A stretch of 64,000 bases of DNA from Sphagnum compactum (GCA_965153455.1 OZ234493.1:27332213-27396212), one strand, 5' to 3'; positions 13,069 to 54,472 are shown, counted from the first letter of the stretch. Notes: generated from the letters alone by a model not told the origin. Translations and numbers: made by a program.

Positions 13069-13862
13069 ATATATGTATATATAGAGATATTGGTATGTTT
13101 GGTTTTCATTAATTTTATTTGTTTTGGGTAGGGTAGTTGCAAGAGCTTTCCTTCCTTTTTCTTTCTTGGCTGCTCTTTTTCTCTCTCTCTCTCTCTCTCT
13201 CTCCCTCTCTCTCTTTTCTTTTCTCCTGTATTCTGCCGCCCCCCTTCCCCTTACTTCCCTAACGTCTTTGGGACCCTGTCTTCCCCCATTGTTTCGGGCT
13301 GTTTATAGTTCCCGTTTCGGTTCTTCCGCTCCCATGTCCATTTGTGGACGTTGAGTGCTGTCCAAAACCTTCTGTCTCTTATCTTCCTGTGAGAGAGAGA
13401 CACACACACACACACACAGAAAAAGGGAAAGAGAAAGGAAGGGGATAGGGAGGCACAGAGACAGAGAGATTGATTTTGTGTGATGCCATCTATTTTCTTT
13501 TTCTTTTGCATTCTGTTCTTGGGTGCGAATTTTATTCTCGATTGAAGAAAAAAATTAGCTCCAATTACATTCTCTTTTAGCCTGCTTGATCCGAAATCTG
13601 GGTACTGCGGTGGTTCCCATTCTTTTTGTTTCTGCTTTATCTGTTTGTGAAGAGAGTTTTGGTGTTTCTTCTTCAAAGGTTAAGTGAGGAAGGCGAAGGC
13701 GAACCGTCGCATTTGGTCTCGATCTGACAAAAAGAGAGTGCAATTTGGTTCAGAGGTGCGAGAGAACTAGGAGAAGAGGGAGGGAGGGAGGGAGGTAGAT
13801 TTCCTTAGCTCGGAAGAGAGAAACCCCATATATGAGGCAGAGAGGATCGGCAACAACCGGGA

Positions 13863-15311
13863 ATGGCGTTGTTAGTGTCAACAACCAAAACTCAGCAGCA
13901 GCAGGGGGTAGAAGAATTCGACCGCATCAAGGGACCATGGAGCCCTGAGGAAGACGCAGCGTTGCAGCAGCTAGTGGAGAAACACGGAGCTCGCAACTGG
14001 TCGCTCATCAGCAAAGGCATACCAGGTAGATCAGGGAAGTCATGCCGTCTGCGATGGTGCAACCAGCTTAGTCCCTTGGTGCAGCATCGTCCATTCACCG
14101 CGCTGGAAGACTCTGCCATCATTCAGGCCCATAAGCTTCACGGCAACAAATGGGCCACCATCGCCAGGAGTCTCCCTGGAAGAACCGACAATGCCATCAA
14201 GAACCACTGGAACTCTACTCTCCGTCGTCGCCACCGGATCTCCAACAACGAGGAAGAGGAGGAGGAAATTGTGAGCGCCGATGCAGGTCGCAAACGGAGC
14301 AGTATTGAAATCTCCACGGACGGAGGAAGCTTGCAGCAGGAAGAGAGCAGTTGGGAAGTCGATTCACGCAGGCTAAAGAAGTTTGGGGGGAGATTCGACG
14401 ACGATCATGCACAAAGGAACAAGAGGATCAGCTTCAGTGGGCCTGATGATGGCGATGCCCACAGACTGAAGAAACTGAGCTTTGGATCATCCGATGCTGC
14501 CACTTCGACCGTGTCCTCCTTGTTACTGCCATCTGACGATGATGATACCCACCAGAAGCTCAAGAAGCCGCCCGCGAACTTTGGCTCCGAGTCCTCCACT
14601 CTGATGCGAGCTCCTGCCGTATTCCGACCTGTGCCTCGAGCTTCTGCCTTCAATACCTTCACCCCCTCTCCTTCTCCCCCCTCGTACGTCCATGTTTCTT
14701 CTCCAGGCGTTCCCCAGTCAAATATCGAAAGACACAAGGAGACCTATGGCGATCAGGCAGAGACGGGCTCGGATCCAACTACCTCTCTGAGCTTATCGCT
14801 TCCAGGAACCGTTCAGAGTTCCCCCCCTCCATCGGAAGCATCAGAGCAAACGCTGGAAAAGGAGCCACCTATGTCCAAAGGCTCAGCGATGATGATGCAC
14901 AGCTTGATAGACGTCAACAACACGGAAACTTGCGAGGATCTGATGAGCATGGCGGCGAAATCTGCAGTTGCACAAGCCCTAGCTCCCGTCGTGTTTTCAG
15001 CGGCGCAAGGCTTCGGCCCCACAAACTGGGCTTCTTCTTCTTCTTCTTCTTCTTCGTCTGTTCCCTTGAGAAGTTGCTACGGCTTGGACGCGGCTGTGAA
15101 TGCAGCAGGCTTGTTGACCATGATGAGAGACATGGTGGCCAAGGAAGTGCAAGACTACATGACGGCGGCTGCGCAGTCCTCCTGGTCCTGCCTCCCTGCC
15201 TTCCACCACGCCATCGCCGACCACCATGAGCACGGCACGAGCTTCGCTTCCCGCGCACAGCCGGACTTCCTCGGTGCCATGGCCACAACTGCTCCTCGGA
15301 AAGCTTTGTGA
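13863..15311 (+). CDS. R2R3-MYB transcription factor, subgroup 22-like (MYB44/73/77 family), intronless, 482 aa
   Basis: R2 is [12 protein letters not shown]...[17 protein letters not shown] and R3 is [28 protein letters not shown]. It also has an EAR-like [12 protein letters not shown] motif and a C-terminal [14 protein letters not shown] resembling the subgroup-22 EMIxxEVRSYM motif. Confidence 0.95.
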
Positions 15312-35675: not shown

Positions 35676-38516
35676 TCAGTGGTTGAACCAGCCTTTCTGG
35701 GGTTGAACCTCAGCAGGATCCCCACCACCATTCATCAATTTATCCAGCACAATATTAAGGTCAACTGACTGCCCATTCTCTGTCAGCTTCCTTATGACTA
35801 CCTGCACTTGATCTTTGGAGAATCCCATGCTTGCAACCTTGTCAATTACTTCACTGATGGGCACCCGGTTTGTTGATAATGGAGTAGTGCCTGCAGATGA
35901 ACCTGTATTGCTAGCATTATTGCTATTATTGCCACTGGTCACAGGTTGGGCAGTTGGCAAACGGGCATAGCCACCTGTTTCAGTATTAGGCACTAAAGGG
36001 TTGGTGCCTGATGATGACATTCGGTACCCATAAGGTGTATAGTTTTCATAGACAGGGAGTGTGGTATGTTCAGGGTGATAGGGAGGCGGCAATGCCAATA
36101 GCCCACCTCTGTTGTTGCGAGAGGGATCATACATCTGTGCTGAAGACAAGTTTGATGACTGTTGCATTTGAGGAAGAGGCTGTGGGAAAGGTCTGTTTCC
36201 ATAGCCTTCAGGCATGTAAGCAGGAGGGTTTTCTGGACTGTACTTTGCCAGAGACTGAGAGCTGTAGCTTGGAATGTCTGACTGAAGGTTTCCATACTGT
36301 GGTTGCATTGGAGGAGGTGTTCCTGACTGTTGTTGACTATAAAACAGCTGTGGCTGTGGCTGAGTCTGAGGCTGCTGATACTGGATCTGTGGCTGTTGGG
36401 GATGCTGATGTTGAAGCTGGGGTTGATGAGAGGCTTGCAATTGAGGCTGGAGCTGTTGAGGTTGGTGTTGAGCTTCAGACTGCCCTGCTTGCTGTTGAAG
36501 ATGCTGGTACTGGAGCTGAAGCAGATGCTGGGGTTGTTCAGCTTGCTGTTGACCAATCTGATGTGTGAGCTGCTGAGGTTGTAACTGGGGTGGCGGTAAC
36601 AAAGCTTGAGGTTGATATTGATGCTCTGGCTGTGCTGTCAGTGGAGTGGCCTGTAGTTGTAGCTGTTGAGGATGCTGAGGTGGAACTTGCTGATGGGCTT
36701 GTTGCTGACGTATCAAGAGAGCATTTTGTTGCTGGGCCTGAGGTCGCAATTGAGGTTGCTGTTGTTGGGGCATCTGCTGAGAAATCTGTTGAGGAATTTG
36801 TTGCTGGGTAGCTGACACAGCCTGCAACTGCTGTTGCTGGAGTTGTAGTTGATGTTGATTCTGTAACTGTTGAAGGTGGTAAATAGCAGGATCAGTCTGC
36901 TGTCCTGAAGATGGTGGAGCAAGGGCAAGCGAAGTCTCCACTTGCTTGGGAGTTTGGGGCTGCACCTCAACAATGGCTTGGACGGGTGCAGCTGCACTTG
37001 CAGGTGCTTCCACCTTACTGACAAGCTGAAGCTTTGCAAGCTTCAGTTGCTCTTCTGCAATCTCCTGCTTATCACGCAAGACCTGCACACCTCGCTGTAC
37101 CTGCCAATTGCAAAACTTCTCTCTTTAGTGTCTGGACTACATTCCCATTCACATCTCATAGATGTGGGTGGTCCTGCCATCCATAGTCCAAATACAAGCT
37201 AAGCAGTGCACATCTTCATCTTCAGAGTGGTAGGTCTCTCTTGCAATTGTAAGTCTGTTTTGGTAATGAAACATGCATCTGTCCAGGAACAAATTCCACC
37301 TGCTAACATGACTCTAATCATTGGAAAATCTCACGATCCCCTGGTGATTCTTGTCCATGTGATAGGATCACCAATACAACTTTCTGATTCAACTGAAGTT
37401 ATAGAGTTCCTCAAATTCATTCAGGATACTTATTGAGTGGTACTCTTGGCAAATGCCAGTTTTCTTCCAGAGGGCCAGCATTGAACCTGCTGGTAAGCAA
37501 CTGAGACCAGAAAGTATGAGCTATATGAACATGATTGGATTTAGAGGGCTGTCTCTCTAAGAATAATCTAGCAATAATCTACCACAAGAATGCATAGCAG
37601 GAGGACAAAATTACCTCTCTGATCATGTTCTCTAAGGATCTCAGCTTGCCATCAGCTGCACCATGATTATCCGCCGACTCAACTTTGAACTCCTGAACTG
37701 TGTGTTCAATGCGCTGGCTATTGAACTCCAACTGAGAGAGACGGCCACTCATACCCTCTAGCACATGCAGCAAGTTGTCTGCATACTTCTTCATTGTCCG
37801 TTCCACTGTTGCCACCACTATGGCCCATTCAACAGATTCCTTCTCAGTATGTCCTGCTTGGTCATATGATGATGGATTATCCCGCTTTGGTCGCTTCACA
37901 TCAGAGATCCAAAGAAACTCATCAGCATCCATACAACAAGAGATTGCCAAATAAATTCAGCCACTTCAAAACGGATGGCAGTGATATCTATTGACAAAAA
38001 GCTTCAGGTTCAATTGCTCTTGCCAAGTTTGACCTAATCTGAAACATTCCTGGATGTGGCCGACCTGCTTAGGTTCCAGAGAAAAAGGAAGCTGAAGAAA
38101 TAGCCAGTCGAAGTCATCACAAGCCTCGAAGACCAGCCCCCATTTGCCTTCCGAGAAGGAGAATCAATTAGGTCCGGATTGAGCGACAAAACCGACAATT
38201 ACGCTAAACAGCCGAAGGTTTCTATGGAAGAGAACGGAGGGGGAGGGGGCAAAAAGAGGGTCCTTACAAGAGGAGGAGGGGACAAAGAACGGCGAGCACG
38301 GTTATCGGCCTGCGTAGACGACCGGCTGCTCTCGACACCGGCCTGAAACTCGAAACCGGGAAGCAAATCATTATTGCCGAAATCAAAAACAGGCCCGGCA
38401 GCGGCGCTCTTGTACTGATGTGTACCACCAACGTTGGTGGTATTACTAGACTCATGTTCCACAGACGGGAAATCGAAGAAAGGCTCCATGTTCGTGAAAA
38501 CCTCCTGCTTATCCAT
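35676..38516 (-). CDS. FLOE-family DUF1421 protein with coiled coil and Q/P-rich prion-like domain; exons 38516-38268, ~37893-37615, 37100-35676 (~650 aa)
   Basis: N-terminal MDKQ and FDFGNNDLL, then VERTMKKYADNLLHVLEGMSGRLSQLE and LENMIRE|VQRGVQVLRDKQEIAE. A long Q/P tract precedes the C-terminal DUF1421 (EVIDKVASMGFSKDQVQVVIRKLTENGQSVDLNIVLDKL..KGWF). The exon 2 acceptor is uncertain. Confidence 0.88.
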
Positions 38517-44400: not shown

Positions 44401-47400
44401 TGGCTAGTTCATTGTTTTTTAAAAAACTTGTGATCTTGGGTTTATTTTTTGTTTTAATTTGGTACCTTTGGGTAAGGTTATTTATTATTAAAATTTTTTT
44501 TGTTAAGCTTTGGATAAGGTCAATTTTTGTTTCCAAAACAAATTAATTATCAGGTAAAGTGGTATTTAAAAAAAGAAATGATTTTGGTTATAGTTCAATT
44601 TTAGGGTTATTAATCAAAATTTAAAAACATTAATTATTATTGCAAGTATGTTTTCAAACAAATCACAAGTGTTCTATTCAAATAGTTATCCACTCCCATT
44701 CAATCATCAACAAAAGAGATCATGGAGCACAAATTGAAATTTATAATCATGCGTAAAAATGTTTAATGTTAATAAGTTGGCCCAAGGATTTTAAAGAGTT
44801 AGTTTGAATTATGGTTCCTTGCATATTCTAAAAAGACAATTAAATGTGAACACAAAGAAATCAAACTCACAATTAGATGTGAAATTAGTGTAAATAAAAA
44901 AATGGGGTATGCCTCACTTCTATAACATATCCAAAGTTTTACAATCTACTTTTAAATTGGCATAAATTTAACTTTCTTTTTATGTTGCATGGGTAGTGAA
45001 CACCACAAGAATTAGAAGATTTTGTAAGCGTCATCTTTGAGCAAATATTGTGAGTTTAAACCTGAAATTTTGAATCACACATTTCTTTTCATGCATATTC
45101 TACTCTACAACATGTTTGCCCATATGCACCTAAGTGTTCATCACTTTCATATGGTTTTCCAAAAGTCCATGAGGAACCTACACAAATAAACAACATTAGA
45201 ATTGTTAAAGTGCATCAAAGTAAACATATTAATCATATAACAAAAAACTAAAACATATGTAAACCTAGTCAAAAATCTCTAAAACCAACATTGAACACTA
45301 GAATGAAAAGCAATCCAAACTTGCATTTTCCAACACACAATTGTCAAATTTGATGTCTCAGATTTGCACAAACACACACTTCCCATTTCTTCTCTTTTTC
45401 TCTCCCTCCCCTCATAAGTATATATATATTTTTTCTTCACAAACACACCATAAGCATCATGAAGAAGAAGAAGCCATGAACAAAAAGGAAAAGAGAAGAA
45501 AGTTTGGTGTGCTTCCCTTTTTCAGTCTACTTTTTCACAAGACTTCCCCTATTGATGGTTTTGGATTTTGTACTCCTTTGCAAGGGATGAACAACAATCT
45601 CAACTCCTTCACGATGACTATCTTGAGTCCTTTATGATGATGATCCCTTCTTTCTTCCACAACCAACATAGTTTTTGGATATGTGTGGATTGTGGAAAAG
45701 AGTAGTGATAAGCAAAACAACAAAGACAAGTGGAAGAGAGAGAGGAGGAAGAAGGTGGAGGCAAATAGGAAGTGCAACTCCAGGAAAGTTTAGTGGAAAG
45801 TTGGAAAGCTCAAACAACTGAAAATTATAGGTTCAAGACAAAAGAAAAACCCTAAATCTAGATGGAAAAAGAAATAAGGAGCACTGGTTTAGGTCTGTGC
45901 CCTTACCCAAGCAGAGGTGGGTACAAGGTTCTAGTATTTTAGCTAGTTCTAATACAAAGGCAAGTACAATTAGCTGTTTAGCTAGTTTTGCTATGTAGAC
46001 AAGTACAAGGTTTAGGTTTTTCATCTCCAAAACCAAACCTGCTGGTTCTAAAATGCCCATGCAAATAACCTTCCAAAACTAGTCACAACATCACTCCTCT
46101 TTTCTATTCAAAGAGGGATATATTCATGTGCAAGGAAAAGCCTTAGGGTGAAGGCATTCCCCAAATTAAGGGGCCTTGGATGAGGTGATAGTTGAGTTTG
46201 ACCCCACATTTTGTTAATGTCCACTACCCATGGGCTTGCCACGGTTACAATTCTACACTTTGTAGCACATAGAAATTCTAGGTCAGGCCAACTAAAGATT
46301 TTTGGAATAAATTATTGTCAATAAGGCTACTTCACAAGAAGGAACTAAAATTCCTTGTGTTTTCCTGTATGAATTTTGCAAAAGCTTTGGTTGCATAACA
46401 ACATTTCAAAATTGTGCGTGTTATTGCACAGGGTTTGGTCATGTTGACAAACAGACATCCCTTGTGACTGCTGACAACCAGGTATATAATAGAGGCAAGA
46501 GGGGTGGATTCTATGGACTAGGAAACCACTGGGAGGTTGTCAGTTACCAAACATAACCTACTGTTCAGAGGTTTTGAGAGCAATGCATAACTCTCCTTGG
46601 AAAAGTCTCAATTACTCTGATGGTTGGGTTCTTGAATGACTGTTTCTACAGAATGTTTACACATGTATTGGTGCAGGGGGATGAGGCAGAGGGTGAAGAT
46701 AAACATGAAACGATGCTTCAGATGGTAACAATGAAGGCTGAAGAGTAAGAATAGTGCTCTTCTCCACAAAACTAATCAACAATAGCCAAGCAGAAGTCAG
46801 ACAACGATATCAATTGAGACAACAAAGGTTATCTGTATCCATGTGTGTGGCATGTTTCTATAGCTTGATGAAAACTGAGCATCTGAATCGTCTGAGCATG
46901 ATATGGTACGTTCTTGAATTTTGGATCTTGAAAATGTATAAAAACAACTTCGCTTCCACAATCTTTGGTACAATTGGTAAGCTGTTTACTTACACATCCA
47001 AATTGCTTGCAGCAGCTGGGGATGTCTTCATGTAGCTTTCAAATGATAAGAACCATGTTCAAAACATCGTTGTCCAAGCAGTAGCAACATCTCACTATTG
47101 GACAAGGTTCTGTCTGTCTGTCTGGTCTGGTCTGTGAGACTGAATTGAAGATGATGAAAAAGCAAGAACTCAATCAAGCCATGAGCTACTTGAGAGATTT
47201 GCAAACATGGGTTGTTGCACCTACCTAGTAGTGCAGCAGCAGGTGTGCAAAACAGAACATAGGGGCAAGTTCTCTTCTGTGTGGGAACAAAATCAAGCGC
47301 CAATGACCTCAACAGATTTAAAGGTCTTCTGAATGTTCAGACATATAACAAAACTGACAGCCTCAGCAATACAGCATATGAGATAAGTTTTATGATTGAA

Positions 47401-47932
47401 ATAACTGAGGAATCACTGTGAAAAGCTTGAGACTCTTATGCATGTGTTGCCAGGGCCCCCTTAAAACATTTGAACCAGCAGTGAGTCAAGAGGATGTTTG
47501 TAATAGTACCTTTTGTTGTCATGATGGAAACCAACTTGCTGCCAGATGATGCCATTGAACTCAAGCTGCCCCATGGCCCCTTGTGATGATTAACAGCAGC
47601 TACAGGGCTTCCACCCCATAGGGTTCTTGTTAAGTTGAAGGCTGCTGTGTTTGTGTCTTTCTGGTCACTGCAGCAGACTTAACAATGACACAAAGAGACC
47701 AGAACTGTGTCTGTCACTGTCTGACCACTGCAGCAGGCTTAACAATGACACAAAGATTGAAACTCTGCAATGCCCCTTGAAAGCTTGCGCCTTTGATGTG
47801 ACAAAACTCAATGTTAAATAGCACTTTTCTAATCCAATTAGCCCTTAGAAGACAGACTGGTGGAAAAGAGCACTCTATGCAATGAACAAAGTGGAGAGGA
47901 CCAGAGTTGCAGACTGACCAGTAACCATTCAG

Positions 47933-50050
47933 TTACATCATTGAAGTACTGCCTGCAACAATCTCCAAAATCTCTCCTGTGATCTTAGCTTGACGCTGCC
48001 TGTTGTAAGAGATCATCAGATCCTTCTTCAGTGTTGAAGCATTGTCACTGGCACTGTTCATAGCATTCATGCGAGCAGCGAGTTCACTTGCAATGGACTC
48101 TTGCAATGCTCCCAAAATCTGGCTGTTCAAGTAGAGGGGCAAAAGTGCATCAAGGATTTGCACAGGTTCTTGCTCAAACAGCATGAGTGCATTCAGCTTG
48201 GGTGTGTCCGTTGGCAGACTATCCCTCTCCACAGAAAATCTCCCTTCCTTGGTCGTGAGTCTGAATATCTCATCATCCACCGCATCCACACAGTTCCCAT
48301 TCATGTCATAGACTTCCCCTTGAGGGGATAGAGGGAGAAGAGTGTGAATAACAGGATTTGACTTGATAAGGGACACAAACCTTGTGTAGAGAAGCTCAAC
48401 TTTGTCAACATCTTCACTTACAAAGAGTGAAAAGAGCTCATCTGCAATGGCTTGAGCATCTTTGGTTGTTGGAGTATATCCAGTATCAAGAAACCTGTCT
48501 ACTTGGATATCAGGCCTTCTCCTGAAGTAACTTTTCCCTTTCTTCCCAACACTGATGACTGTGTAGTCAACACCAATCTTCTGCAGCTGCACCATCCTCT
48601 CAGCAGCCTTCTTAAGGATTATATTGTTAAAGCCACCACAAAGGCCACGGTCACCCGTCAATATCACAAGAGCAATCTTCTTCACGGGCCTCACCTGAAA
48701 TTGTTGGGAGAAGAATTTGGGTCATGAAGTTTACATGATAGAAAGTGAGGGTTAGAGAATGCTGGTCTTCTCTGATGCATTAGAGAGATGCTGCAAAACA
48801 ACTTAAATGCAACTTTTCAAAGGTGAAAGCTAAAACACTTGAATCCCAAACCTTGATTCATGTGGTTGAAATTGTCCTGATACATAAAGCAAAGAACAGA
48901 AGGAGTTGCCAAGAGCAACCGTCCCCTGTGCCAGCCAGTATTGTTTGGTAGATGTCAAGCCATTAACATAGATGTCCACATGCACAAACAGAGTTGATTC
49001 TATTTCCATTGATGCATGGCAAAATCATTAGAATTTCTCTCTGAGGCTGTTGGATGACACCATTGCAACAGAAGATAAGGACCATAGCCACTCCAAAACC
49101 AGAGAAATTTCATTTCTGGAGGCAGAGGCTAAGCATATTTTATCTCTGCATCAACATGCTGCTGAATGTCTTGCCATCAGACCCCATAACGAGATGCCCT
49201 TGAGAGAGAACTACTGGACCAAAATGCAAAAGCAAAGATCTAGTTCCTTTACTCTGCTGCAATTTATGCAAAAGCGTTTAGCAGCGGGCATTATGCGTTA
49301 AGGTTGCACATATCCTCAGCCATGCAGGATGAGAGGAAAGCAGAATATTGCATTACCCAACCGGGCTTAACTTCCCTCTGATGATGCATCCGTTATGATC
49401 TTCTCGCAATTAACATACATTACTGGACCATCGTGCAGTGAATTGAGCACAACAGATTGTGAATGTCTTCAGTTCGAAACTACAGCGCACGACGTACAAA
49501 GAAGAAGTTGCAATCGCAGAGAGCAAAGAGAGGCTTTCCCTTTGGATACTGAGAACTGGATATTAAGCTACAAAAGCCATGCATAACGTTATCGTACCTG
49601 CGTCAAAGGCATGTCTATGTCCTCATTCTGAAGACAAGAATTCACATGGAAGAGGACCTTGACGAGGTTGTGCGAGAAAGGACGACTGTTCACCACCGCT
49701 TCTTGTGCCTTGCGCACCTTGGCAGCGGCCACGAGTCTCATGGCATCGGCGATCTTCTGCGTGTTCTTCACTGTTTGAATCCGATCCCTGAAATCTTTCA
49801 TCGCGCAAACCAACGCAGCAGCAGGCCTTCTTCTTCTTCCTCTCTCTCGTCTTTTCTTCTCGACCGCGACAGGCGAGTGACTGAAATCGCTCCTTGACGA
49901 CATCGAGCGCCTTGAAAGATCGTCAAAGGTGACATATGTTCCCAAACAGCCTCCTCCATCAGCTTTCCCGCCACCGTTTTGTCGATATCTTTCGCGAAAA
50001 TGCATCTCTGGTGGCATGAAAAGCACGGATCTGCACAGCAGAGAATCCAT
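47933..50050 (-). CDS. atpC: Chloroplast ATP synthase gamma subunit, divergent paralog; exons 50050-49598 and 48694-47933 (~404 aa)
   Basis: FRDRIQTVKNTQKIADAMRLVAAAKVRKAQEAV, TGDRGLCGGFN, the plastid-type insert TLLPLSPQGEVYDMNGNCVDAVDDEIFRLTT, and RQAKITGEILEIVAG. The phase-0 intron 49597-48695 has GT..AG ends. Confidence 0.95.
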
Positions 50051-52543
50051 TGAACTGCGGGTTGCAGATCCGGAGCAACCCTGATTTCCAGAGCACGAAA
50101 AGATTTGCAATTTCGCACTGCCCTACTTTCACAAAGAAGACACCGCCGCTACTACCCCGGTGAAGGAAGGGGGGGAAGCGAAAGACCGGGCCGGGTCGGT
50201 CATGGGAGTTCCACCAAAACCGACTCGACCTTCTACAGAGTAGAGTATGCCATTGTATGAATTAGCAGCTCCAGCTTCGTGGATGTTTTCCATCTGAAAG
50301 GGGATGCTCCCTCATTCACAAAGACAACTTCCAGGGATTCTAATTTCTTGTCTTCCTCATGACGAAACATTGGTTGGCTCTCGACTATGAACATTTGCAG
50401 TATGCACTCTCTGAGATCACCTAGTGCAACATAACCAACCGATTGTGACAAATTTGATTGTAGGGCGCATCTTGTTAACGTGGCATCACACCGTTGGACA
50501 AGAGCTCTCCAGGTATTTCACAATATTTTTCTGTTCTCCTGACATTTTCATACCTTCCTAATAACATTTGACACATTCTTAGTAGTTGGTTGGCTAAACC
50601 TCATAACTCACCCTCTTCTGTGTCCCATAACCTGTGTACACTTCAGTTCAACCTCCAGAAACAATTTTGTCCCTGAAGAGGAAGCCAAGTTGTTCAATTT
50701 CTTTTGCCATTTTTAAATCTTGCATGTCAATGAGTTCCTTGAACCATTGGTCTCATCAAATGGGTTACCTCAAAGGCACATTTTACAAGCCAAAATAATA
50801 AACAATCACAGTGCTTAAAATTTAGCACTTTCATTCTCATAGCTAACCATGGTGATTAGCTAGGTACAAACCATCTGCATGCCATCTACCTACCTAGTTG
50901 GTTGTCACCAAGCGCTTTACTTAGTTTCTCTACCTTCTTACTTATCTATAATACTTGTTTTTCTTTTGATTTTCACTCTTACACAGCACAAGCAAAATGA
51001 AACAAAAATTTCTGTCAGTGATTTAGGGTGGGTAACTCCCCAGGAGCAGAGTTTTCCTAACCTAAGCATCCCCTCTACCATGGGCAGGCACAGTACTTGG
51101 GGGAATGCCCCGCTCCTGGGGCATTACCCTACTGTATGCACAGAATGTGAACATGATACAATGTAAGAGTAATGAACTCATGATAATGAATCAATGTTGA
51201 ATGAACTGGAATTCAGAAGTGTGAGGACTGATATTCATTTCATGCGAGTTGCACAATTATAAATATGGCCCCTAGGTAGATCTTTTTTTTTTAATATGAG
51301 GATTTTTGAAAGATAACATTTTTTTGGCTTGTGTTGAAACTTGAGATTAGTTAGATTATGATATCTAGAAGGATTTTGGTTTGTTTAAGAGGATTTTTTT
51401 GAAGATTATATACATTTGCATGGTGAAAATTTGAGTTTTCATAGTTCTTCTTTTGCCTTAAGATATTTTTAATGTAAATGGCCAGGCCACAGTGTGACGC
51501 ACCCCTTGTTTACATTTGTATCAGAATCTCCATTGTTGACACTTCCAAAAAGCTTTGGAGTCCAATGAACTTGGAAATTTTGATTGGTGTTTCAGTCTCC
51601 TCTTATAACAAGTGAATCTGCTGGGCCGTATCAAGTTGCAAGCAATTCTGAAAAGATGACTCTTAACTCAATCCAAAGTATGAAGTAAGTTTGCAATTTA
51701 TTAGCTACAAAAAGCTAAACATGTGAAACCTGAATCCTAAGTTGTCTTCAAAATTTGTGTTTCCAACTTGATTAGTTCATGGTTGCTTGTTTAAGTCACT
51801 CCAAACCTCAGAAGCATATATGTATATATATATGAAAGCAAGCTACGGCCTTCCACCCACTACTCGAACCTCATTTATTGTGATAAAATAGTGAGAGAGT
51901 GTTTTCATGTCTTTGAAACTTTTCACAACTCTGGACTAGACAGAATAAATTGCATCTGCTAGTTAAAGTGGCAATCAGTGTTGAGACGGAGCCAGGTTCC
52001 TTGGACATCCAATTGCAGTTTAAAATTTTGTGCTAACATCCAACGAACAGGGACATAACATGTGTTGGGCAACAATAATGATCGGAGCCATCTCTGATCC
52101 CCTTCAAGAGTCGAACACAACCAACTCTGAATATTTATTTATTCTATTCCCTCTGAATAAATAGTTTCCCTCACATCGGGCCATCTGCCTTTGAATTAAA
52201 TATTGGAGTCCCAGAATTTCAGTTAATTTCCTTTTTGACAAAACTGACTTGGCTTTACCATACACAACCCACTTGCCCTGGCCCAGCCCCCACCCCAAAA
52301 AAGAAAAAAGAAAAAAAGAAAAAAGCAAAGCCAATTAAAAGAAAATCTTTGCAAGGTGCTACAAAAGCTGGAAAGAAAAAGAGCCCCATAGTCCATGTTA
52401 CATTTCCTGTGGTCCAATGGTTGGGATGTACACGCTTAACTGACAAGACCCGAGTTCAAACCCAGGGGGATACACCATTCAATTCCACCACTCACCAGGC
52501 ATTCCAGCCTATCTGGAACCTAGCCTACGAGTATCCTGATCTC

Positions 52544-53010: not shown

Positions 53011-54472
53011 ATGTCTATGGCGACGGCGGTTCCCAGCACCAGCTTCACCGGCTCGCTGCTACGGAGGAGTAGGAGCAGCCTTTTCGGAGGAGGTCTGCAA
53101 ACCCTGCGCGTTTCTAGCCTGAGGGTACCCGGGGTGAGTTTGCGCGCCGTTCAGAAATCGGTGTGCTCGAAGCTGTCGTCTTCTTCGTCCTCGACTGACT
53201 CCGAGCAATCGGTGGCAGTGGGTGGAAGCCTTTTGGCAGGTTAGGAGGCATCTTCACACTCTGTCGAAGGATATACCTATTATGAAATATGTATGACCCA
53301 CAGAACTGTCCTGAGCTTTCCACACTTTGCAAAGACATTTAGGTCTTTCGTGAATACGCACTAGAAAACCTTGAATGCTGCCAGGGAAGGAACTAAGGAA
53401 TTGCTGAAGGAACTAAAGGGATTGCTGTGTTTTACAGACCAAGTATAACAGAAGGTTGGGAATTCTACTGCTGCAGGTGCAATGTTCACGGCAATGACAA
53501 TGCCGGATTCTGCCATCGCATCACAACAATTGATGGCCTTGGCAGCAGATGACAGCAGAGGATTTGCACTGCTTCTGCCATTGGTTCCAGCACTTGGATG
53601 GGTGCTGTTCAACATTCTACAGCCCGGTCTAAACCAGTTCAACAGAATGCGGGGGATCAAGGCTGTGGCAGCAGGTGCAGGTCTTGGGGCCGCACTAACA
53701 ACAATGATGTTAGTACCCCATGCATCAGCTGCACAGGAAATAGCAACTCTTGCTGCTGATAGTGATTCAAGGGGCTTGGTTCTGTTGGGTATTCTTGTTC
53801 CTGCTGTTGCCTGGGTTTTGTACAATATCCTGCAACCTGGTTTGAATCAGCTCGACAAGATGCGCTCCTCTAAGGCTGTGGTTGGTGCATTGGGCCTGGG
53901 AGCTGTTTCATCCATGTATTTGACCCCCCAAGCTGAAGCCATTCAGGTACATGACTGAAGCAATGTATGCTTTAGAGAAGCTGATGATTAGACAACTTTT
54001 GTATCTAAGTGGACTTGTATAGTAATTCCGCTGTGATGCTAAGAAATGTTTGCCAAGTGCAGCATATTTTCATTCACTCTTACAATCAAGCAGAACTAAT
54101 GCATTTGATTTTTTGGTATAGGAAATTGCCACTATTGCTGACAATGACTCCAGAGGGTTGGTGCTTCTGGGGATCCTCCTTCCAGCTCTAGGATGGGTTC
54201 TGTTCAACATTCTGCAGCCTGGTTTAAACCAACTTAGCAAAATGAAATCCATTAAGGGGCTTGTCATTGGTGCTGCTGGATTGGGAGCCGCAGCTTCTTC
54301 CATGATGGCTGCTGCACCAGATGCTGAAGCTGCCCAGGAGATAACACAGCTGGCTGCTGATAACCGACCCTTGATTCTTCTCTTCATTCTACTGCCAGCA
54401 ATTGGATGGGTGCTTTTCAACATTTTGCAACCTGCTTTGAATCAGCTCAACAAGATGTCTGGGAAGAAGTAG
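53011..54472 (+). CDS. psbY: Photosystem II PsbY polyprotein with four PsbY units; exons 53011-53239, 53477-53946, 54122-54472 (~349 aa)
   Basis: A Ser/Arg-rich transit peptide is followed by four copies of D(S/N)R..L...PA(L/V/I)xWVL(F/Y)NILQPxLNQxxKM. Each copy is preceded by a hydrophobic signal ending in A-x-A. GT-AG introns keep the frame. Confidence 0.93.

Follow-up and report, generated by a model that had tools for sequence, protein, structure and literature searches.

The window, by which we mean the whole stretch of DNA analysed here (64,000 nucleotides of Sphagnum compactum, GCA_965153455.1 OZ234493.1:27332213-27396212), contains on its minus strand a gene for the γ subunit of a chloroplast-type ATP synthase (AtpC) in which tyrosine occupies the site of the first regulatory cysteine. 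This gene, referred to below as the Tyr type, is intact and conserved among Sphagnum species, and its transcript is correctly spliced. Its coding exons lie at 49598-50050 and 47936-48694, and joining them from the ATG at 50050 yields a 404-residue product that is letter-for-letter the S. compactum protein P0127 (NCBI CAM6033919.1).

Structure and transcription of the AtpC locus

Both coding exons match the PF00231 profile (E values 1.5e-64 and 5.3e-15; cutoff 39.9 bits), exon 1 over profile positions 2-60 (56 bits) and exon 2 over positions 70-284 of 285 (219 bits). Exon 1 (49598-50192), defined by translation, RNA contigs and the cDNA contig L001, encodes residues 1-151 in its coding sequence (CDS; 49598-50050), comprising a presequence of 83 residues (49802-50050) and the start of the mature γ; its 5′ untranslated region (UTR) runs from 50051 to about 50158-50192. 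Intron 1 (48695-49597; 903 nt, GT..AG) is placed by the sequence, RNA joints, the L001 blocks and tblastn of canonical loci, and tblastn puts it at the identical codon position in this gene and in both canonical Sphagnum AtpC genes. Exon 2 (47919-48694) encodes residues 152-404 (47936-48694) and also contains the stop codon (47933-47935), which is followed by 14 nt of 3′ UTR. Intron 2 (47678-47918; 241 nt, GT..AG) begins 15 nt past the stop and lies inside the 3′ UTR, as shown by the L001 cDNA blocks and by a 47677→47919 joint in one contig of RNA run X18. Exon 3 (47124-47677), whose lower end is undefined, is 3′ UTR throughout; it is covered by RNA contigs and by an L001 block (47678-47124) at 94% identity. 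An earlier, sequence-only reading of the locus had described an intact two-exon open reading frame, which holds for the coding part; the mRNA itself has three exons, the second intron falling in the 3′ UTR. A 60-nt tandem duplication (47645-47756; two 52-nt copies, 87% alike) spans the acceptor of this 3′ UTR intron, and its second copy could give an alternative acceptor 60 nt deeper in the intron.

The gene is expressed. L001, a metatranscriptome contig of 1905 nt whose CDS is identical to that of the genomic locus L002, aligns with the window over three blocks (50158-49596, 48697-47919 and 47678-47124) and therefore represents a spliced mRNA from which both introns have been removed. RNA contigs of runs X15 and X18, which come from two studies, join across intron 1, skipping its 903 nt; they cover exon 1 over 49596-50180 and 49596-50192, respectively, and stop at about 50180-50192. 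No upstream ATG was present in the 110-nt leader of L001 or in window positions 50051-50192, and the annotated start, Met1, coincides with the earliest AUG in the transcript. A start at Met84, corresponding to a 321-residue database form that has no presequence (P0003), was ruled out: the position is Ile in S. jensenii, and Met1 is the transcript's first AUG. Within the presequence there is a strongly basic stretch, KKRRERGRRRR, that is not found in canonical transit peptides. Copies also differ in length there by one codon (GGG/GG), the X15 and X18 contigs having a 3-nt deletion at 49950.

Sphagnum has at least three AtpC genes, namely the Tyr type and two canonical types represented by P0005 and P0015. 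The designation of the window gene as a paralog is borne out, and both of the others have the Cys-Cys pair. Exon 2 of the Tyr type is 80-81% identical to the canonical Sphagnum copies.

The first regulatory cysteine is replaced within an otherwise retained redox insert

The sequence-only reading had placed a TAT codon at the first site of the cysteine pair Cys199/Cys205, the mature-protein numbering of the spinach regulatory pair. Positions 48308-48310 read ATA on the plus strand; read from the minus strand, this is codon 280 of the AtpC frame, TAT, which specifies Tyr. The minus-strand translation of 47936-48694 includes LSPQGEVYDMNGNCVDAVDDE, and Tyr280 stands in the gene product in the context GEVYDMNGNCVD. 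The best match among PDB chains in a phmmer search was the spinach chloroplast γ subunit (6fkf_g, E value 3.7e-149), with which residues 84-402 align without gaps at a constant offset of 40; Tyr280 stands opposite Cys240, and Cys286, encoded by TGT at 48290-48292, stands opposite Cys246. Cys240 and Cys246 together are the redox switch of spinach γ according to PMC7468127. A thiol-modulated γ subunit has both regulatory cysteines; here the two positions hold Tyr280 and Cys286.

The redox insert (48173-48316; residues 278-325, equivalent to spinach precursor Glu238-Glu285) comprises β hairpin 1, an acidic DDE motif and β hairpin 2. In the gap-free alignment to 6fkf_g the whole green-lineage insert is kept and, of the regulatory pair, the first cysteine alone is gone, as the sequence-only reading had held. 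Bacterial γ chains align, over their best stretch, only to about residue 275-283. The acidic motif, D291-D292-E293, is retained, and an identical DDE occurs in canonical mosses; its spinach equivalent, the EDE motif at 251-253, sits between the hairpins, and its deletion is stated to abolish redox sensitivity (PMC7468127). The same source lists Leu257, Thr258, Thr259, Lys260, Leu264 and Glu267 as the hairpin 2 residues that contact the β-DELSEED region. Five of the equivalents (L297, T298, T299, K300 and E307) are the same as in spinach; the sixth, position 304 (spinach Leu264), is Phe, likewise in canonical mosses.

No new conserved cysteine was found in the mature part of the Tyr type, where the only conserved ones are Cys286 and Cys170 of the universal GLCGG motif. 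Cys139 was considered as a compensating residue and ruled out; it could not replace Cys240 because other species have His or Arg at 139. The codon itself (139; 49634-49636) is a fast-changing site: canonical γ has Gln there with 96% conservation, this species has Cys, and other Sphagnum species have His or Arg. AlphaFold2 models were too poor to use, with a mean predicted local distance difference test score of 48.9 for the Tyr protein and 50.1 for the canonical S. compactum copy, and values below 50 in the insert of both.

Distribution of the tyrosine

The best database matches to the window product form a tight cluster of 54 members, 40 of which were taken in; the 15 members listed include full-length proteins of S. 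troendelagicum, S. jensenii, S. balticum and S. compactum together with unnamed JGI and Logan sequences. Database entries for Tyr-type proteins are unnamed products only. In all 12 other Tyr-type proteins covering the site, those from S. troendelagicum, S. jensenii and S. balticum among them, the tyrosine is followed by the retained cysteine, and the S. compactum protein that matches the window product exactly shows the same pair. Among 146 motif-bearing proteins, 132 were Cys-Cys and 14 Tyr-Cys, the latter consisting of the window's own (P0001, P0127) and the 12 Sphagnum-type relatives. In the alignment, which ranges from charophytes to angiosperms, Cys occupies the first regulatory site in each of 108 full-length canonical AtpC proteins. 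The tyrosine is thus not a private allele, being common to orthologs of four named Sphagnum species.

Scanning metagenome contigs gave 79 loci, 61 of which cover both positions; six of these are of the Sphagnum Tyr type, and the other 55, many green algae included, are all Cys-Cys. Codon 280 was TAT in each of six distinct Tyr-type DNA sequences, which come from separate metagenome records, whereas the first-Cys codon of the two canonical Sphagnum paralogs is TGC. Codon 286 was TGT or TGC in all Tyr-type copies, a synonymous variation. Codon 280 lies within contigs from one DNA and three RNA runs, with no other letter among the rows listed; contigs and independent DNA loci agree on TAT and not TGT. 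In X1, the best-matching DNA run, the contig over 47957-48455 (exon 2) differs at 9 of 499 positions and the adjoining 1975-nt contig (48426-50400) at only 2; this mosaic might reflect two alleles or homeologs in the sample.

No report of a Sphagnum or bryophyte AtpC lacking a regulatory cysteine was found in the literature searched, most subscription journals and supplements lying outside the search. The gene appears to be a third nuclear AtpC gene that has so far been seen only in Sphagnum.

Selection, rate and phylogenetic position

Nei-Gojobori estimates were made on six distinct Tyr-type CDS, whose pairs share branches and are not independent. In the mature part, the ratio of nonsynonymous to synonymous rates (dN/dS, ω) was 0.083-0.166 in the 14 pairs, out of 15, whose dS was above zero, on 4-12 synonymous (Sd) and 2-6 nonsynonymous (Nd) differences. 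Corresponding values for canonical genes were 0.02 between the paralogs and 0.05 within the P0015 type. The mature part of the Tyr type is under purifying selection, and its dN/dS lies well away from 1. The reading frame is intact, at 403-404 codons, in the window and in all five other distinct copies. Between the Tyr type and canonical copies dN was 0.13-0.14 and dS saturated (>2.3), as against a dS of 1.0 between the two canonical paralogs.

A maximum-likelihood tree was built from the mature parts of 42 proteins, five of the 47 intended rows having been dropped when the mature-start pattern was unmatched. The Tyr sequences form a clade with 100/100 support on a stem of 0.53 substitutions per site, with tips of 0.004-0.014; a Tyr clade under purifying selection, which the sequence-only reading had raised as a prospect, is recovered. 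The clade lies within the mosses (97/96) and apart from the angiosperm clade (100/100). Inside the mosses, the Tyr clade, canonical Sphagnum (stem 0.05) and the remaining mosses diverge in a three-way split, in which the sister grouping receives only 46/0. An approximately unbiased test was compatible with a duplication before the split of Sphagnum from other mosses (p = 0.196), with Selaginella, which the tree placed among the mosses, outside the constrained set. Tajima relative-rate tests counted 35-49 changes in the Tyr lineage only against 5-10 in the canonical lineage (p = 9e-5 to 2e-9), and the Tyr stem lineage is accelerated 4-10-fold. Altogether the Tyr type departs from canonical proteins at 14 positions whose conservation among them is 95% or higher.

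Proposed consequences of the cysteine loss

In the mechanism set out in PMC7468127, the disulfide forms hairpin 1 and puts a torsional constraint on hairpin 2; the constrained hairpin 2 and the EDE motif stabilise contacts that hamper rotation, and reduction frees the constraint. With Tyr280 in place of a partner cysteine, a disulfide of the Cys240-Cys246 type would be impossible, and since the disulfide would be absent, the torsional 'chock', which sets a higher activation threshold in darkness, would be missing too. A CF1Fo containing the Tyr-type γ would then be expected to behave as a permanently reduced enzyme that is active at low proton motive force (pmf), and it would hydrolyse ATP in the dark, keep the thylakoid energised and be blind to thioredoxin. 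We consider a permanently 'reduced-like', thioredoxin-blind γ subunit to be the most likely, and on balance a probable, reading of the gene. The Tyr-type protein may enter CF1 and yield a dark-active enzyme, and a tie to low light, non-green plastids or stress may be envisaged. It is possible, if doubtful, that Sphagnum operates two chloroplast ATP synthases, one gated by thioredoxin and the other, with Tyr-γ, never lockable and energising dark thylakoids by ATP hydrolysis.

Several observations weigh against a permanently reduced-like CF1 subunit. The main weakness is the atypical, near-neutral presequence, plastid import being putative. The presequence can be aligned with the canonical AtpC transit peptide and is homologous to it, but its composition is odd: its first 40 residues include four acidic ones and 7-10% Ser plus Thr, whereas canonical copies have 0-1 acidic residues and 17%. 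Its ω within the Tyr clade is about 1 or more (Nd 0-9 versus Sd 0-1), and it evolves fast, with 9 of 87 columns variable compared with 8 of 321 in the mature part (p = 0.003). The mature part, too, is constrained about 2-8 times more weakly than in canonical copies. Six changes, among the 14 noted above, fall at sites that are invariant in the 108 canonical proteins (T101A, K105R, R114K, E127H, C280Y and R346G), and assembly or catalysis could therefore be altered. The Sphagnum Tyr-type copies are only dS 0.02-0.06 apart, so that the shared tyrosine represents an ancestral fixation and is no demonstration of selection on tyrosine. Tyrosine is also bulkier than the serine of laboratory mutants, and its effect on hairpin 1 could differ. 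On the RNA side, contigs from the RNA runs also fall on intron 1, with a depth in X15 and X18 below that over the exons; this could reflect intron retention, pre-mRNA or other unspliced RNA, or DNA carry-over; moreover, all four runs were represented by Logan contigs, which cannot rank genes by expression level.

Alternative explanations

Part of this evidence would also fit a marginal, slowly degenerating duplicate that is transcribed but poorly imported or rarely assembled, with little physiological share. The 35-49 lineage-specific changes against 5-10 in canonical copies, the 2-8 times higher ω and the neutral, atypical presequence all point that way, as does a GC content at third codon positions of 0.50-0.52, below the 0.60 of one canonical copy. 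A gene on its way to loss would sit poorly, however, with a frame of 403-404 codons that is intact in all six distinct copies, with a mature-part ω of 0.08-0.17, far from 1, and with the correct splicing of both introns in transcripts from several datasets. The saturated dS against canonical copies further indicates that the Tyr-type gene is long-lived. We therefore regard degeneration as unlikely.

Slightly less likely still is that the protein is a functional CF1 γ whose regulation is altered and not lost, either because Tyr280 packs on hairpin 1 and mimics an oxidised-like state with a high threshold, or because Cys286 takes glutathionylation or a mixed disulfide. Retention of Cys286 in all copies despite the TGT/TGC variation would be accounted for in this way, as would the preservation of the entire insert, acidic motif included, after loss of the disulfide. 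Relative to the canonical Sphagnum copies, fixed changes are over-represented in the redox insert (16 of 48 positions versus 44 of 273 elsewhere, p = 0.008), and A290V replaces a 98%-conserved Ala in the one-turn-helix segment. Most of the insert differences, however, map to the lower loop of hairpin 2, a segment that varies among canonical species too; single-Cys mutants have so far behaved as active, reduced-like enzymes (PMC11573611); and any other modification of Cys286 would be hypothetical.

It seems very improbable that the protein has taken up a new role away from the thylakoid ATP synthase, whether in a different compartment or with a different partner. The atypical N-terminus and the non-conservative changes at the invariant E127 and R346 would suit such a role, but the helices inside α3β3 and the DELSEED-contact residues of the hairpin are conserved, the presequence can still be aligned with a canonical transit peptide, and we know of no free-standing role for a γ subunit. 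There is next to no probability that the Tyr codon stems from a mistake in sequencing or assembly or represents a private allele, as the single base between TAT and TGT might suggest, given TAT in six of six distinct DNA copies from separate metagenome records, Tyr in the proteins of four named species, and no variant among the rows listed for one DNA and three RNA runs there.

Comparison with known systems

Measured against canonical γ subunits (spinach AtpC, 6FKF chain g; Arabidopsis ATPC1; the P0005 and P0015 types), the permanently reduced-like γ proposed here belongs to the same PF00231 family and aligns with spinach γ without gaps through the insert, the acidic motif and the hairpin 2 contacts. 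It differs from them in the first cysteine, in five more invariant sites, in a rate of change 4-10 times faster and in its atypical presequence.

Arabidopsis ATPC2 was reportedly described as a redox-insensitive γ paralog by Kohzuma and colleagues in 2012. Like ATPC2, the Sphagnum gene provides an additional γ isoform beside the photosynthetic one and is expected to lie outside thioredoxin control. In two reports, ATPC2 (γ2) is redox-inactive although its regulatory cysteines are present (PMC5050024, PMC5522872); it keeps the cysteines and differs in surrounding residues (PMC5050024), whereas the Sphagnum gene has lost a cysteine, and the distinction from ATPC2 drawn by the sequence-only reading is upheld. 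The enzyme containing ATPC2 is described there as redox-insensitive, active in light and dark, and able to sustain import by the twin-arginine translocation (Tat) pathway in the dark (PMC5522872). The same text reports ATPC2 for dicots and not for monocots or green algae. Membership of the Tyr type in the dicot ATPC2 lineage was ruled out, the Tyr clade falling inside the mosses in a tree without any ATPC2 sequence. Because the clade lies within the moss clade (97/96), an origin separate from that of ATPC2 is indicated, and we infer that the gene may be a bryophyte counterpart of dicot ATPC2 that arose independently and by another route, loss of a cysteine.

The Tyr type also resembles single-Cys mutants, in which one cysteine of the pair is missing and there is no disulfide. 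Chlamydomonas γC233S, with one redox cysteine gone, showed faster decay of the flash-induced electrochromic shift after dark adaptation (PMC11573611), and Arabidopsis γ Cys point mutants are viable according to a preprint (bioRxiv 10.1101/2020.04.28.066100). Those mutants were made in the laboratory by replacing Cys with Ser in the sole or principal γ subunit, whereas the Sphagnum change is a natural Cys-to-Tyr substitution, fixed genus-wide in an extra paralog. A different arrangement is found in wild-type Chlamydomonas γ, where the disulfide forms and is functionally uncoupled by an algal hairpin segment (Lebok and Buchert 2024, PMC11573611); the authors treat this hairpin as a natural means of obtaining a dark-active CF1Fo and argue that it is a niche adaptation. 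The Sphagnum paralog resembles the algal subunit in being most diverged in the lower loop of hairpin 2, and differs from it in that the disulfide itself would be impossible.

Significance

Thiol modulation is treated as a defining, invariant trait of the green lineage, and the 108 canonical proteins and 55 other loci all keep both cysteines. A naturally occurring, expressed and genus-wide paralog without the switch is a ready-made experiment on the purpose of dark inactivation, a question that work on the Arabidopsis gamera lines (PMC5522872) and the Chlamydomonas hairpin study (PMC11573611) have reopened. It would also mean that regulatory γ paralogs are not limited to dicots, contrary to what is stated in PMC5522872. 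Sphagnum has a large ecological weight, and its physiology in darkness and at low oxygen deserves attention independently of this question. If Sphagnum does possess a second, never-lockable enzyme, a dark pmf could sustain Tat and Sec import and preserve the photosynthetic apparatus, in the manner of the 'stay-green in the dark' gamera lines, and this could suit a plant that is long shaded, snow-covered, waterlogged or buried. The Tyr type would then be a third independent escape from dark inactivation in the green lineage, following dicot ATPC2 and the hairpin of Chlamydomonas, and would be alone among the three in deleting the switch itself.

Neighbouring genes

About 3.3 kb upstream of the AtpC paralog and divergent from it, a second photosynthesis gene is indicated by an open reading frame (53449-53958, plus strand) with two repeats of PsbY, photosystem II protein Y, matching PF06298 (E value 2e-28). 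Farther away, a MYB-type exon on the plus strand (13836-15311) encodes two Myb DNA-binding repeats (E value 7e-36), and an exon on the minus strand (35676-37124) encodes part of a DUF1421/UBA-like protein (E value 3e-19).

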